Of a DNA stretch of 43,880 nucleotides, positions 12,199-40,660 are shown in pieces. Below the pieces are notes generated by a model. It was not told the origin of the DNA, made no database searches, and saw nothing but the letters and a program-made list of their open reading frames with translations. Position numbers and translations under genes: made by a program. Source of the DNA: Candidatus Odinarchaeota archaeon (GTDB lineage Archaea > Asgardarchaeota > Lokiarchaeia > Sigyniarchaeales > SOKP01); NCBI GenBank assembly GCA_048885325.1, contig JBHLPZ010000004.1, forward strand, positions 1-43,880, read 5' to 3'. Position 1 is the stretch's first letter, and each line of letters begins with the position of its first letter.

Positions 12199-12902
12199 TA
12201 TTCATCCTCCTTTAAAATAATTCTTGCATCAACAACCATTAGTCCTTTATCTTTTTCAAACACGATTACAGGATTTAAATCTAATTCTTCTATTTCTGGA
12301 TTTTCAATTAAAAGACGACAACATTTCAATAAAGTATCTATTATTTTTTCATTATCTGCTTTGGGTTGTCCTCGATATCCGTCCAATAGTGGAAAAGCTT
12401 TGATGCTTCTAATCATCTTATTAGCTTCGTCTTGAGAAATTGGACATACTCGATGTGACACGTCTTTAAATATCTCAACAAAAATACCACCTAATCCAAA
12501 CATAAGAACTGGTCCAAAATTAATATCTCTAATGCTTCCTATTATTATCTCAACGATGCCTTTTTCTACCATTTTCTGTATATTTACTCCTTCTAATTGA
12601 GCCTCAGAACTGTAGTGTTTGCCATTATTAATAACTTCTTTATAAGCTTTCCTAACTTCCTCATCAGAATTCAAATTTAACTTAATTGCTCCAGCTTCAG
12701 TTTTATGGATTATATCAGGGCTCATTAATTTTGCAACTACAGGATAGCCTATATTATTAGCAAATCTTACAGCTTCATCCTCATCTTTAACAACTTTATA
12801 TTCTCCAACTGGAATGTCATACTTAGCAATTAGATCTTTACTTTCATGTTCCATCAAAAATGTTCTATTCTTACTAAGGACATTTCTAATTATTGAATCC
12901 AC
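12198..12902 (-). CDS. acdB: ADP-forming acetate/acyl-CoA synthetase beta subunit (ATP-grasp)
   Basis: GYPVVAK, HKTEAG, FGPVLMFGLGGIFVE, ELDLNP, VDAR; TAATG stop/start overlap with acdA. Confidence 0.92.
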   Translation of the reverse strand: MDSIIRNVLSKNRTFLMEHESKDLIAKYDIPVGEYKVVKDEDEAVRFANNIGYPVVAKLMSPDIIHKTEAGAIKLNLNSDEEVRKAYKEVINNGKHYSSEAQLEGVNIQKMVEKGIVEIIIGSIRDINFGPVLMFGLGGIFVEIFKDVSHRVCPISQDEANKMIRSIKAFPLLDGYRGQPKADNEKIIDTLLKCCRLLIENPEIEELDLNPVIVFEKDKGLMVVDARIILKEDE

Positions 12903-36948: not shown

Positions 36949-37563
36949 ATGCAAAATCTAAATAAGAAAGATTTTGAACCTGAAAGCCTTACCAATGAAG
37001 CAATAGAAGATCCTAAAATATTAACTAAACTGATAAATAATCTTATAGCTAAAGCTGAAACCATTCGATATAATAGCCATAAAGTCTTATTAATTATAAG
37101 TCAGAATAAACCAGAAGTCCTTTATCCACATTGGGATTTTTTTGTTGATTTGCTAAAAAGTCAAAACAATTTCCATAAAGTTATTGGAATTCAGATTCTC
37201 GCCAACCTTACCAAAATTGATACTAAAAACAAGTTTGAAGATATTTTTGATAATTATTGTAATTTACTTGATGCTAAAAGTGTAATGACAGCTGGGCATT
37301 TAGCAGCGAATCTTGGTATAATTGCTAAAGTAAAACCGAACCTGAGAGATAAGCTAACTAAAGTATTATTAAGCATAGATGAGACCCATCACGAAATTAG
37401 CCGTAAAGACTTAATAAAAGCATACATTATTGAATCTTTCAATGAATTCTTTAATGAAATAGAAAATAAGGAAGAAGTCATTAAATTTATAAAAGCTCAA
37501 CTGAAATGTAAAAGCCCTAAAACTAGAAAATCAGCTGAAAAATTTCTTAAAAAATATAACTAA
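36949..37563 (+). CDS. ARM/HEAT-like alpha-solenoid protein
   Basis: Repeated amphipathic helices (LINNL..IRYNS..; FVDLL..; AANLGIIAK). Confidence 0.7.
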   Translation: MQNLNKKDFEPESLTNEAIEDPKILTKLINNLIAKAETIRYNSHKVLLIISQNKPEVLYPHWDFFVDLLKSQNNFHKVIGIQILANLTKIDTKNKFEDIFDNYCNLLDAKSVMTAGHLAANLGIIAKVKPNLRDKLTKVLLSIDETHHEISRKDLIKAYIIESFNEFFNEIENKEEVIKFIKAQLKCKSPKTRKSAEKFLKKYN

Positions 37564-37588
37564 ATTTGGTTTCTGAATAAATATTCAT

Positions 37589-37629
37589 TTGTCGCAATGA
37601 CATGACAATATTGTGACAATATTTAAATA
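37589..37629 (+). promoter_or_regulatory. Candidate operator abutting the actin TATA box
   Basis: TTGTCGCAAT-N11-ATTGTGACAA (9/10 inverted repeat); TGACAATATT direct repeat at 37603 and 37614; TTTAAATA 37622-37629. Confidence 0.55.
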
Positions 37630-37655
37630 GTTAAATTTATTTTATTATTTTATAA

Positions 37656-37769
37656 TTATATGCTGTAATTCATCAATAGATATTAAAATAGTTCTTGGAT
37701 TTAACTATAATTCAATTTATTTTTACATTCCATTATTTTAAGTTTTTATTGTGAAAAATTAGCATATAA
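37656..37769. repeat. Long imperfect inverted repeat in the predicted actin 5' UTR
   Basis: Arms 37656-37691 and 37733-37769 with collinear paired blocks TTATATGCT/AGCATATAA, TTCA/TGAA, CAATAGA/TTTATTG (one G-U) and TTAAAATA/TATTTTAA. Confidence 0.5.
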
Positions 37770-37801
37770 GTTTGATATAAAAATTGGTGGAGGAATAAAT
37801 T

Positions 37802-38938
37802 ATGGAAGAATTAAAATTTAATAGGGCCATTATTTTAGATAATGGAACAGGAATTTCTAAAAACGGTTTTGGTGGAGAAGATCAACCACGTTCGGTTTTT
37901 CCTACCATGATTGGAACCCCAAAATATGGAACTGTGATGCCAGATGTAAAACATTTTTCTAGAGACTATTATATTGGAGAAGAAGCAATGGAACTTAGAG
38001 GTCTTTTAAGTCTTAAATTTCCGATCGAACATGGTATTGTAGAAGATTGGCCTGCTATGGAAAAATTATGGCATTATACATATTATACTGACCTAAGAAT
38101 TGATCCTTCAGAACATCCGATACTCCTTACAGAAGCACCTTTGAATCCGCGACAAAATAGAGAGAAAATGGCAGAAATCATGTTTGAGACATTTAATGTA
38201 CCTGCATTGTATATTGCGATGCAAGCAGTGTTATCTTTATATGCTTCAGGAAGAACAACAGGAACTGTAATAGATATTGGCGATGGGGTGTCTCATATTG
38301 TTCCGATTTATGAAGGTTTTGCATTAAGTCATGCTATACAAAGAACAGATCTAGCAGGAAGGGACGTTACAAAATATTTACAAAGGTTGCTAAGACAAAA
38401 AGGTTACTCATTCACCTCAACTGCTGAAACTGAAATTGTAAGAGATATTAAAGAAAAGCTATGTTATGTGGCAATAGATCCAGAAAAAGAATTACTCCTT
38501 TCTAAGAAAGTTGATGGAATGGAAAAATTGTTTATGCTTCCGGATGGAGAAACTATTAGCTTAGGAATAGAAAGATTCTTAGCTCCTGAATGTTTTTTCA
38601 ATCCATCAGTGATAGGAAAAGAGTTAGACCCAATTGATGATCTTATAGTAAGCGCTATATCTGAATGTGATGTTGACCTTCGAAGAGACCTTTACAGTAA
38701 TATTGTATTGTCCGGTGGTTCTACTATGTTTCCAGGTATTAAGGAAAGGTTAACAAAAGAGATAAAAGAAATGATTTCTGAATCCGTGGAAGTAAGAATT
38801 ATCAGTCCACCAGAACGTATGTATTCAGTGTGGATTGGAGGTTCAATTTTAGGCTCATTAAAGACATTTCATAGGATGTGGATTACTCGACGCGAATATA
38901 AAGAATTTGGCCCTACAATAATACATAGGTGTTTTTAA
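37802..38938 (+). CDS. Asgard actin (Lokiactin-like)
   Basis: DNGTG phosphate-1, [77 protein letters not shown] end; GGAGG RBS. Confidence 0.97.
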
Positions 38939-38962
38939 TGATATGGTTTAAAATTTTCAATC

Positions 38963-38970
38963 TTTTTTTT
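38963..38970 (+). terminator. Possible leaky poly-T terminator between actin and the fusion gene
   Basis: T8 run inside the 54-bp spacer, followed by a GAGGGGGG RBS. Confidence 0.35.
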
Positions 38971-38992
38971 AGAAGAGGGGGGTTAATTAGAA

Positions 38993-40195
38993 TTGGAAAA
39001 AATTATCAACAAGTTAGATAAATTTCTTACATCTGAATCTAGAATTATTTCAACAATCATTATTGAAGGAAAGAGTAAAATTGTTTATTCTTCTGATAAC
39101 TGGGATATTGCTGATGATTTGGAAGAAATTAATTCTTTATGGGATTCACAAGAACTCAGTGAGCTTTTTATTGATAATATTAAGTACAAAATTATACAAA
39201 TCTCATCTGAAAAACTTGTTGCTATGAATTTAGAGAAAAGAGGTAATATCATTGGATTTAAGGATGATGAAAGAAGAATCATCTGTCGAATAGAACCTGG
39301 AGAACAAATTTTCTTAGGTTTAATAGATGCTTCGAGAACTTTAGGAGAGCTACGTAAAAGGGATCCTTATTTAGATCCGCAAGCAATTTTAGGTAAAATT
39401 AAAGAGATTAAATGGGCAACTCCAAAAGTATTACTTAATGATACTCAAAATTTACAGAGATTAGGATTGTTAAAAGTTGGATTGACCCTTGAAGAGGCAA
39501 AAGTATACTTGAGTCTTCTTCAAAGTGGCGAAAAAGGAGAAAAGGTGGGAACTCTTAATAAACAATTGGAAATTAAGAGAACGACAATATATCGGATCAT
39601 TGAGCGTTTAGTTAATAAACGATGGGTCGATAAGTTAATGGAGAGACCAACAGGTACGACTATTTATGTTGCTAGACCCATTAATGAGGTAATTGATAAT
39701 ATTATTAAAGAAAGGGAAGATGAATTAAAGATTCTTAAATCCTTTAGATATATAATGGGGGAAAGCTCGGAAAATGGCTGGATTGACGTTTCAAAAGAAT
39801 TTAACACTTTGGGGATAATTGGAGTGGATAAAGATTGTGGACTTATTATATTTGAATATGAAAAGGCTGTGAAAGAAGAGGTTCTCATTCAAGCAGCTTT
39901 ACAACTATCATATGAGAAATTAAAAGGACAATTGCAGCCTGATTCTGAAAAAGAAGAATTTATAAATGCGGATTTGAAGGATATCAAAATCACTCGAGTT
40001 AAAATTGATAATTATTTAGGGGCAATTATGTATTTAAAATTTAAGGATGGTTCTAAAACAGCAAATAATATCGGAACTGATTGGATCGTAGCGGCGAAGC
40101 ATCTCGCAATGCCTATAGAAGATAAAATTTATGTAATATGGGGTTCAGAAGAAAAATTTCCAATATTATTGAGTATAATTTTGAGACTAAAGTAA
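38993..40195 (+). CDS. Profilin-like domain fused to a TrmB-type winged-helix domain and an unknown C-terminal domain
   Basis: aa 1-120 match the Loki-profilin pattern (IVYSSDNWDI..W..IDNIKY.IIQ...KLVA.N..GNIIGFKDDERRII..EP); aa ~155-250 match TrmB (GLTLEEAKVYLSLL..KRTTIYRIIERLVNKRWV..YVARP). Confidence 0.75.
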   Translation: MEKIINKLDKFLTSESRIISTIIIEGKSKIVYSSDNWDIADDLEEINSLWDSQELSELFIDNIKYKIIQISSEKLVAMNLEKRGNIIGFKDDERRIICRIEPGEQIFLGLIDASRTLGELRKRDPYLDPQAILGKIKEIKWATPKVLLNDTQNLQRLGLLKVGLTLEEAKVYLSLLQSGEKGEKVGTLNKQLEIKRTTIYRIIERLVNKRWVDKLMERPTGTTIYVARPINEVIDNIIKEREDELKILKSFRYIMGESSENGWIDVSKEFNTLGIIGVDKDCGLIIFEYEKAVKEEVLIQAALQLSYEKLKGQLQPDSEKEEFINADLKDIKITRVKIDNYLGAIMYLKFKDGSKTANNIGTDWIVAAKHLAMPIEDKIYVIWGSEEKFPILLSIILRLK

Positions 40196-40660
40196 TTAGA
40201 AATATGGAATTTCGGAATGATTCTTTGCCTCCTCATAAATGGGGCCCTTAGCAATGAAACCTAGGGCTAAACCACTGCCTCTTCCAACTAGTAAATTGTC
40301 ATTAAGTTTAATATTAAAGGCTCTTAAAGTTTTTTGGGGAATTTCTATAATTCCACTCTTGTAGATTGTAATCCAACAGTAATTTTTTTCTTTTATTTTA
40401 AATAATTTTCCTTCTTCTAATTGGTGATTTAATAATTCAGGGAATCCTTCTAACATTTTTCCAATTGGACTATTTTTTAATAGACGACTTGAACTTAACC
40501 CAAAACCACCTGAACGTTTACTTCCAGACATTAATATACCTTTATCATCTTCATTAAGTCTATATTCAAGATAAGCTTCTTCTGGAATTATTAATTTACC
40601 ATTTTCCCCTACTTTTGACCATCCAAATATATACTTCCCACCTTTTACAAGTTGAGGCAT
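40196..40660 (-). CDS. Tandem AbrB/MraZ-like swapped-hairpin protein
   Basis: Two repeats: SKVGENGKLIIPEEA and ITIYKSGIIEIPQKT. Confidence 0.65.
   Translation of the reverse strand: MPQLVKGGKYIFGWSKVGENGKLIIPEEAYLEYRLNEDDKGILMSGSKRSGGFGLSSSRLLKNSPIGKMLEGFPELLNHQLEEGKLFKIKEKNYCWITIYKSGIIEIPQKTLRAFNIKLNDNLLVGRGSGLALGFIAKGPIYEEAKNHSEIPYF

Follow-up and report, generated by a model that had tools for sequence, protein, structure and literature searches.

The stretch of DNA analysed here (the window) comprises positions 1 to 43,880 of contig JBHLPZ010000004.1, a sequence of 43,880 nucleotides (nt) from assembly GCA_048885325.1 of a Candidatus Odinarchaeota archaeon placed in the order Sigyniarchaeales, and the subject of the analysis is an actin gene located on its forward strand. 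This gene is followed on the same strand by one that codes for a fusion regulator, in which a domain with the profilin fold precedes a DNA-binding winged helix of the TrmB type, and is itself preceded by a putative operator abutting a TATA-like box (Table 1). Comparison across related genomes indicated that the encoded protein is almost certainly a dedicated actin paralog that forms part of a conserved module, as opposed to the main Lokiactin of its host.

Table 1. Actin paralog, fusion regulator and associated features, in window coordinates (position 1 being the first nucleotide).
Feature	Position	Strand	Basis or remark
Putative operator plus TATA-like box	37590..37629	+	Phylogenetic footprint across genera g1, g2 and g5
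Half-site TGTCGC	37590-37595	+	
Half-site TGACAAT	37603-37609	+	
Half-site GTGACAA	37613-37619	+	
TATA-like box TATTTAAATA	37620-37629	+	
Predicted long 5' leader (~150 nt)	37630..37801	+	Box-to-ATG distance; putative transcription start
Shine-Dalgarno-like motif GGTGGAGG	37786-37793	+	Before actin ATG
Actin paralog ('fusion-linked Lokiactin')	37802..38938	+	ATG start, TAA stop, 378 amino acids (aa); PF00022 match
DNase I-binding loop (D-loop) region, aa 38-56	37913..37969	+	2 residues longer than in eukaryotic actin; focus of paralog-specific substitutions
Spacer, 54 nt	38939..38992	+	
T8 tract	38963-38970	+	In spacer, from the 25th nt after the stop
Shine-Dalgarno motif GAGGGGGG	38975-38982	+	In spacer
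TTG start codon	38993	+	Start of fusion gene
Fusion regulator gene	38993..40195	+	400 aa, TTG start; profilin fold, TrmB winged helix and C-terminal domain
Profilin fold, aa 1-121	38993-39355	+	Sequence and Foldseek matches to Asgard profilins
TrmB-type winged helix, aa 160-229	39470-39679	+	PF01978 TrmB, E 2.9e-11
C-terminal alpha/beta domain, aa 275-400	39815-40192	+	Structure model
Small open reading frame (ORF) in relatives			Between actin and fusion gene in loci L015-L021, L023-L025, L057, L058, L061 and L062

By its profile scores the product is best classed as a eukaryote-like Asgard actin of the Lokiactin type, apart from the actin-related protein (Arp)-like paralogs. Residues 8-376 aligned with positions 5-407 of the 410 in the Pfam Actin profile (PF00022) at 437 bits (cut-off 27), as against a score of 21 bits for MreB_Mbl; the nearest solved structure was 9wc4, 'HC1 actin' (597 bits), with eukaryotic actins at ~520 bits. 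The source genome (99.6% complete, 320 contigs; G000 in our series) yielded four PF00022 matches, namely a canonical actin on another contig (C26:9431-10543; 440.9 bits and 84% identical to the window actin), the window gene (435.2 bits), and two distant genes scoring 294 and 215 bits. The two distant actin-fold genes, G000:C10:9537-10619 and G000:C12:10798-11748, are 42% and 37% identical to the window actin and presumably represent Arp-like paralogs; the C12 gene sits in a 510-aa frame.

When the window actin was searched against the 101 genomes of the order at an expectation value (E) threshold of E <= 1e-100, a match was returned by 89, the remaining 12 genomes being 71-99% complete. Nearly every matching genome contained one copy 83-84% identical to the window actin with a near-constant score (743.9 bits repeatedly), and this copy represents the near-invariant canonical actin. 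Every fusion gene was accompanied by a further actin of comparable grade (77-100% identical to that of the window); outside these loci the grade yielded one extra copy only, in the tandem pair of G081, where the fusion gene is missing. The G081 tandem actins (G081:C48:2100-7000, locus L063) lie ~1.6 kb apart, are 83% and 80% identical to the window actin, and group with the canonical actins. An additional, more distant actin copy (45-52% identical) was present in five genomes: four copies constitute a 51-52% class (G055:C32:426-1514, G051:C10:56063-57151, G021:C90:3839-4933 and G082:C29:20476-21564), and the fifth, in G062, is 45% identical and carries two TAA stops.

Phylogenetic analysis (IQ-TREE, quick mode) was conducted on 63 sequences, comprising 26 actins linked to a fusion gene, 23 canonical actins of family f1 (those with retrieved loci), the two G081 tandem copies, 10 actins from f2 and f4, and two Arp-like rows; the truncated linked actin of G099 and the degraded one of G088 were excluded. 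All 26 linked actins formed one clade with a Shimodaira-Hasegawa-like approximate likelihood ratio test (SH-aLRT) value of 100 and a stem of 0.12, while the canonical copies appeared as a comb with branches of 0-0.03. The linked-actin clade was restricted to the 28 of the 101 genomes that carry the fusion gene. Two features of the tree detract from it, namely the quick mode of the search and the failure of the long-branch Arp-like outgroups to provide a clean root, as a consequence of which the tree leaves the duplication undated relative to family f1. The assignment of the window gene to a dedicated paralog follows from this separate clade together with the near-invariant C26 copy that fills the main role; a prior reading of the locus from its letters and ORF translations alone (the sequence-only reading) had left the choice between main Lokiactin and dedicated paralog undecided, and it was the phylogeny and the actin count that settled it in favour of the latter.

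The two paralogs evolve at very different rates. Mean pairwise identity was 83.5% (minimum 76.3%) among the linked copies as against 98.8% (minimum 91.9%) among the canonical ones, with 164 and 37 variable columns, respectively, out of 371. Nonsynonymous divergence (dN) of the linked copies was 2.4-7.4 times that of the canonical copies, a ratio that represents a lower bound since the canonical dN values obtained by the Nei-Gojobori method (NG86; 0.014-0.041) exceed expectation from protein identity. The ratio of dN to synonymous divergence (omega, dN/dS) for the window actin was 0.03-0.04 relative to G034, G017 and G078, and is given for such close pairs only because dS between genera was saturated (nan or >1.4). 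The linked actin is faster-evolving yet under strong purifying selection.

The differences between the paralogs were concentrated in one part of the molecule. With a near-fixed difference defined as a position at which the canonical residue occurs in <=15% of linked copies, 16 such positions were recorded, 13 of them within aa 12-84, and 12 of these 13 within aa 36-84, a segment that comprises the D-loop and the rest of subdomain 2 (positions 36, 39, 43, 44, 47, 50, 53, 64, 68, 72, 75 and 84). From canonical to linked copies, Y39 is replaced by K, T, E or Q, E43 by G, S44 by N or T, T47 by P, E50 by K (a charge reversal), T53 by S, Q64 by E and T84 by P. Variable columns made up 74% of subdomain 2 in the linked actins and 13% in the canonical ones, the corresponding figures for the other subdomains being 35-49% and 9-11%.

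Elsewhere the molecule has retained the features expected of an actin. Residue numbers were set by alignment with the 375-residue eukaryotic actins 4efh_A and 1yag_A, relative to which the window actin has a 2-residue insertion in the D-loop, much as had been estimated by eye, and a 1-residue deletion before the C-terminal CF; numbers in the window actin are accordingly higher than the eukaryotic ones by 2 up to the D-loop, by 4 beyond it and by 3 at the last two residues. On this map H77, Q141 and H165 correspond to H73, Q137 and H161; Y170, F173 and H177, all within aa 168-177, correspond to Y166, position 169 (Y in eukaryotes) and H173; D290, D292 and R294, inside the CDVDLR of aa 289-294, correspond to D286, D288 and R290; and the C-terminus reads RCF (aa 376-378; C377-F378). 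The profilin-face, catalytic and H73-equivalent residues and the terminal CF that the sequence-only reading had listed as retained were all found in this way. The nucleotide-binding and catalytic set (D13, G15, K20, Q141, D158, D161, G162 and H165, equivalent to D11, G13, K18, Q137, D154, D157, G158 and H161) is complete and invariant across 21 linked actins, and M46 (the equivalent of M44) and the cleft residues Y147, T152, L350, L353, F356 and F378 are kept. Nothing in the protein argues against polymerisation, for which it looks competent.

With regard to the profilin-binding surface, a list of 20 contact positions of the bovine profilin-actin structure was applied to 26 linked actins; 14 positions were invariant and 6 changed conservatively (F/Y, S/N, E/D/A, R/K/G, E/D and V/I). 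The canonical actin keeps the same positions. The earlier statement that this surface is retained is consequently correct, but the face is no distinguishing mark of the window copy.

The identity of the fusion regulator was established from both sequence and structure. Its first 150 aa matched solved Asgard profilins, led by 5zza_P (E 2e-7) and followed by 7pbh, 5zzb and 5yed (to 4e-6). The AlphaFold model of the regulator had a mean predicted local distance difference test score (pLDDT) of 66.8, the values being 70-85 in the three domains and less than 50 in the linkers, and Foldseek searches with it returned LokiProfilin2, OdinProfilin and LokiProfilin1 at E ~1e-7 (5zzb_A, E 9.8e-8), eukaryotic profilins at 1e-4 to 1e-3, and TrmBL2 at 9.5e-4. 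The N-terminal domain is an Asgard-type profilin fold. Just past it, all 25 homologs carry P125 and at least 90% of them Y126; these two residues lie in a linker (aa 122-135) left disordered by the single-protein structure model. The TTG at 38993 is taken as the real start of the gene because an in-frame TAA lies two codons upstream and relatives carry ATG at the homologous codon. No RPEL family was among the Pfam matches at E <= 0.01. Public records describe the actins as 'actin, cytoplasmic 2' or 'actin-related protein', and the regulator as 'sugar-specific transcriptional regulator TrmB'. The source genome also contains a stand-alone profilin-like gene (G000:C22:12269-12649, L005), 35% identical to the N-terminal domain of the fusion and scoring 23.8 bits on Pfam Profilin, under the cut-off of 25. 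The stop of the fusion gene (40195) abuts that of a convergent ORF of 154 aa on the minus strand (40196-40660, no Pfam match), without intergenic space for a terminator.

The association of the two genes proved to be invariant, an actin being located directly upstream of the fusion gene and on the same strand in all 28 loci, from genera g1, g2, g5 and g6. Full-length homologs of the fusion were found in 27 of the 101 genomes of the order, together with one cut by a contig end (G093) and one remnant (G051); in a phylum-wide sample the fusion was present in 21 of 68 genomes of family f1 and in none of 232 genomes from 29 other families. Decay of the module was also recorded: G099 (L072) has an intact fusion gene preceded by no more than the C-terminal half of the actin; the linked actin of G088 (L062) is degraded, aligning with gaps at 59% identity; and G051 (L073) retains a C-terminal piece of the fusion gene that contains a TAG, with no actin beside it.

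In 14 of the 28 loci the two genes are separated by a small ORF of 50-76 aa (detected by pattern in 13 and by eye in G066), which has a conserved start M(V/I)(R/K)IK(I/L)(I/L)DGIPCI. No homolog was detected in the source genome (best tblastn E 0.11), nor any Pfam family (best E 0.0054, below cut-offs). Given the absence of a homolog, the lineage of the window has lost this ORF, which would be ancestral to the module. The flanks of the window module, as judged by ORF reading, code for a UvrA-like ABC protein, an acyl-CoA ligase-like protein and an HD-domain protein (HD by Pfam), and the G021 locus likewise follows the end of a uvrA-like gene.

By-eye comparison of the 300 nt upstream of linked actins revealed a footprint consisting of an inverted repeat, TGTCAC-N5-6-GTGACAA, joined in some loci by a third half-site and followed directly by (N)ATTTAAATA; the window copy spans 37590-37629 and reads GTGACAATATTTAAATA at 37613-37629. 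A repeat search of 37540-39010 pointed to the same element through two copies of TGACAATATT, the other short repeats being AT-rich. The pattern GTGACAAN{1,2}ATTTAAATA occurred in 17 of the 101 genomes, once per genome, on the same contig and strand as the linked actin and just upstream of it (the element stands upstream of the linked actin in L014, L027-L033 and L056-L062), and was absent from all fusion-less genomes among the 101; a reversed control pattern gave 4 matches. Those fusion genomes that lack the exact pattern carry variants (G017, G088) or had too little upstream sequence retrieved, as a partial check indicated. Half-sites numbered 27 in 5137 nt upstream of actins (5.26/kb), 2 in 4156 nt between actin and fusion gene (0.48/kb) and 2 in 53046 nt of coding sequence (0.04/kb). 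A second match in the source genome, GTGACA..TTTAAATA at 12455-12472, falls inside a minus-strand ORF and was rejected as chance.

The repeat is likely to be the operator of the TrmB-type fusion regulator. An inverted-repeat operator adjoining a B recognition element (BRE) and TATA box, and a regulator of the TrmB family, are both in place, and it is rather probable that the regulator acts there, through a binding that is presumed. In the window ~175 nt separate the TATA-like box from the first codon of the actin gene, and in relatives 65-235 nt, which implies a long leader. According to a review of the TrmB family, the TrmBL1/Tgr motif TATCAC-N5-GTGATA is located upstream of the BRE/TATA at activated promoters and downstream at repressed ones (PMC4158304). 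The proximal half-site of the window occupies the expected BRE position, abutting the TATA-like box, a placement that complicates the proposal since either sign of control would be possible. A bacterial promoter and terminator scan, which gave 26 sigma-70-like sites, where 14.4 were expected, and a single minus-strand hairpin terminator within the fusion gene, was set aside as inapplicable to an archaeon.

The spacer between the two genes conformed to its earlier description, the 54-nt length, T8 tract, strong ribosome-binding site and TTG start all being located as stated. Among 172 same-strand gaps of 40-70 nt, taken from crude gene calls on the source genome, 9.3% contained a sense run of T>=8, and the T8 of the spacer is more than expected by chance. 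A run of T>=7 separates actin from fusion gene in 24 of the 28 loci and of T>=8 in 21; G034, G040 and G023 have T5-rich stretches only, and G092 has none. Oligo-T is a known archaeal termination signal, which makes partial termination the natural reading of the tract. Where a two-gene locus possesses a run, this begins 6-25 nt past the actin stop. Of the three-gene loci, 11 have the run behind the small ORF and 3 (G038, G054 and G088) behind the actin. Judged as a candidate operon, the pair shows conserved strand, adjacency and order in all 28 loci, and a terminator-like signal between its genes, namely the T8 in the window and T>=7 in the 24 loci. The gap is 36-128 nt in the 14 two-gene loci and 242-392 nt in the 14 with the extra ORF. 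The G031 spacer (L060) contains an N run with the start of the fusion gene duplicated on either side, which looks like a scaffolding artefact.

Translation signals were also compared. A Shine-Dalgarno motif precedes the fusion start and another the actin start; in the source genome (crude gene calls) such motifs were found before 35% of genes that overlap or lie <=10 nt from an upstream gene, and before 7-9% of others. The fusion gene starts with TTG in 6 of 25 loci (G000, G034, G040, G023, G065 and G017) and with ATG in 19. The apparent start codons of 24 linked actins comprised 11 ATG, 3 TTG (G017, G021 and G031) and 10 ATT, the last being those of eight genomes of genus g2 plus G092 and G093. 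The ATT or TTG codon precedes S-V-N and has a Shine-Dalgarno motif 5-8 nt ahead of it (in loci that include L014-L021, L033 and L056), and in G093 a TAA immediately precedes the ATT with the Shine-Dalgarno motif at the right distance. ATG was the start codon in all six canonical actins examined from f1 and in both actins from f2. The earlier suggestion that partial termination plus a weak start codon would give much actin and little regulator is therefore weakened: the T-tract is conserved in 24 of 28 loci, but a weak TTG opens just 6 of 25 fusion genes, and in 13 of 24 relatives it is the actin that has the weak start. Low translation of one or other gene would seem to recur in the module, though not in that fixed form.

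A complex of the actin (21-row alignment) with aa 1-140 of the regulator (25-row alignment) was predicted once, alongside three controls. The interaction prediction score from aligned errors (ipSAE) was 0.77, 0.77 and 0.78, as against 0.00 for the best control; 116 of 157 solved complexes and 2 of 215 mismatched pairs attain the mark applied to this score. At least 85% of contacts were common to the runs, and partner pLDDT was at least 79. Confident contacts on actin were 103, 128-132, 152, 170-171, 173-177, 290, 292-293, 355, 358-359, 363-364, 366-370, 372, 375-376 and 378, which together correspond to the barbed-end face and include Y170, F173, H177, D290 and D292 of those residues named in the sequence-only reading. 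On the regulator side the strongest contacts involved residues 125-129, with P125 and Y126, against actin 366-370, which suggests that the P125/Y126 stretch is an extra actin-binding element beyond the profilin fold. An actin-profilin interface, on which the sequence-only reading depended, was in this way predicted, and the model indicates that the actin probably binds the profilin domain of the regulator. Two considerations temper that view. The result may reflect memory of the solved Asgard profilin-actin complexes 5zza, 5zzb and 5yee, and the model cannot separate the paralog from the canonical actin as partner, the contact residues being nearly identical. Those residues at or adjacent to the interface that differ between the window actin and the canonical actin of the source genome are Y170/F, F369/M and T372/Q.

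These observations can be accommodated by a scheme in which the module runs in the order operator plus TATA-like box, long leader, actin paralog, (ancestrally) the small ORF, T-tract and regulator, with a single operator-bearing promoter ~175 nt upstream of the actin gene driving the whole. The regulator would bind the operator through its winged helix, and its profilin domain, consistent with the in silico data, would bind the barbed-end face of monomeric actin, supplied by the paralog and possibly by the main actin too; the activity of the regulator would then track the actin-monomer pool. Regulator mRNA would arise mainly by read-through of the T-tract, which would lower its level relative to that of actin. 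Taken together, this whole chain is assigned a probability of roughly one half. The proposition that the module constitutes an actin-monomer-sensing archaeal circuit, with the paralog acting as ligand or co-regulator of the profilin-TrmB factor that binds the paralog's own operator, is advanced as a tentative one.

Several of the features recorded tell against a single transcript and a fixed ratio of products, and can be considered alongside the explanations with which they agree. If the T8 tract terminated the actin transcript essentially fully, the locus would comprise two transcription units, with the fusion gene expressed from a constitutive promoter of its own (either TTTAAAAT at 38947-38954 or the T8A itself) and the adjacency of the genes reflecting regulation by, or interaction between, their products instead of a shared mRNA. 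This arrangement, which is possible if rather doubtful, agrees with the retention of the T-tract in 24 of 28 loci, with T7, T6 and T9 runs that trail the canonical actin gene within 60 nt of its stop, and with the genome-wide association of T-runs with 3' ends, sense T>=8 being ~3 times commoner after stops than before starts (10.7% against 3.2%) and depleted within 50 nt of starts; the T8 may by this token end most transcripts. The 14 of 28 gaps that span 242-392 nt and house another ORF point the same way, the tract lying just before the fusion gene in 11 of them with A/T-rich TATA-like sequence after it. TTTAWATA boxes in the source genome show a small rise 35-31 nt upstream of starts, and the T8A, at -30 from the TTG, could belong to a promoter of the fusion gene. 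The main rise of these boxes, however, is at 90-56 nt, and most TATA-like boxes lie 60-90 nt upstream of starts, an interval that here falls inside the actin coding sequence; at 29.6% G+C, TATA-like words weigh little either way. Moreover, no conserved promoter or operator motif was found before the fusion gene, its Shine-Dalgarno motif needs a leader, and 54 nt leaves little room for TATA plus start site. It is the lack of an operator before the fusion gene that favours one regulated unit, and from the layout of the locus a transcript shared by actin and fusion gene appears just probable. The shifting of weak starts between the two genes across relatives likewise speaks against any fixed design of much actin and little regulator.

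The part played by the paralog in a single regulated unit could also be construed otherwise. It might be the regulated target only, a specialised structural isoform with altered D-loop contacts, the profilin domain sensing canonical actin. Subdomain 2 with its D-loop is a filament-contact and partner site, and the concentration of paralog-specific changes there, and not on the profilin face, would suit such an isoform, as would the retention of M46 and the hydrophobic-cleft residues; with contact-face residues nearly identical in both paralogs, strong discrimination by the profilin domain is not to be expected. This is nevertheless an unlikely account, given that Y170/F, F369/M and T372/Q, at or beside the interface, would permit some specificity, and that co-inheritance in 28 of 28 loci with decay of both genes in G099, G088 and G051 is typical of interacting partners. 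Much further from probability is DNA positioning, in which paralog filaments would move DNA by means of the fusion protein, an adaptor whose winged helix would hold the upstream repeats, these serving as a centromere, and whose profilin domain would hold the filament barbed end. In ParM-ParR-parC plasmid partition, repeats upstream are followed by the gene for an actin-fold ATPase and then by that for a DNA-binding partner, and the layout of the module matches this order; the predicted adaptor contact at the barbed-end groove and the patchy distribution within the family are in keeping with it. Only 2-3 half-sites are present, however, and not a repeat array, and they abut a TATA-like box in the manner of an ordinary operator; the protein is a true actin (437 bits for PF00022 against 21 for MreB_Mbl) and no ParM-family ATPase; profilin is a monomer-binding protein that caps the barbed face and does not ride on filaments; and the flanking ORFs look chromosomal by eye, the uvrA-like gene end that also precedes the G021 locus speaking for vertical chromosomal inheritance and against partition. 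Membership of the partition systems was on these grounds rejected.

Comparison with known systems helps to define the proposed scheme. The canonical Lokiactin and 9wc4 share with the window actin their family, length class, longer D-loop, and nucleotide-binding, catalytic and barbed-face residues, from which the window copy departs in being second, faster-evolving, changed in the D-loop and subdomain 2, linked to a regulator and served by a private operator-bearing promoter. The predicted complex resembles the Asgard profilin-actin structures (5zza, 5zzb, 5yee) in the fold of the partner's N-terminal domain (template modelling score to target 0.67-0.76) and in the actin face predicted to be bound, but differs in that the profilin fold is here the first domain of a 400-aa DNA-binding protein, with predicted extra contacts at P125 and Y126. 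The putative operator is akin to the TGM operator of TrmBL1/Tgr in Thermococcales, sharing a TrmB winged helix and a similar inverted half-site next to the BRE/TATA; the half-site is however TGTCAC/GTGACA with a spacer of 5-6 nt, one site per genome was found and no regulon, and the sensor domain has a profilin fold in place of a sugar-binding domain. With ParM-ParR-parC the gene order is alike, the module differing in its true actin, its operator-like site at a TATA-like box and its chromosomal context. In animals, the MRTF(MAL)-SRF system allows the pool of monomeric actin (G-actin) to control transcription, with feedback on actin-gene expression. If the proposal is correct, the module would be similar in that regulator activity depends upon the binding of monomeric actin, with feedback on an actin gene; it is unlike MRTF-SRF in having no homology to it, no RPEL match, a prokaryotic-type DNA-binding part, and no nucleus for shuttling.

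A full-text literature search, assessed by titles and abstract openings, found no description of an actin paralog linked to a profilin-TrmB fusion. The protein is a new member of the Asgard actin family, and the combination of a fast-evolving paralog with its own TrmB-type operator and with a regulator that contains a profilin sensor domain is one for which no description was found. For family f1, counts and phylogenies of 'Lokiactin' must henceforth split two paralogs of very different rates. Interest in Asgard actins and profilins has centred on their structural role, as precursors of the cytoskeleton of eukaryotes; the present locus links a second actin to a DNA-binding protein, by way of an actin-binding domain, and to a private operator, the ties between actin and regulator being gene order, co-inheritance, co-decay and a predicted interface. 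The small, defined parts involved (a 40-nt operator, a 140-aa domain and two actins) make the idea testable in vitro despite uncultured hosts. If true, this would be, to our knowledge, the first known case of actin-dependent gene control in archaea and a prokaryotic-style counterpart of the G-actin control of MRTF-SRF, and it would imply that actin gained a signalling role beside its structural one outside the eukaryotes, independently within one Asgard family.

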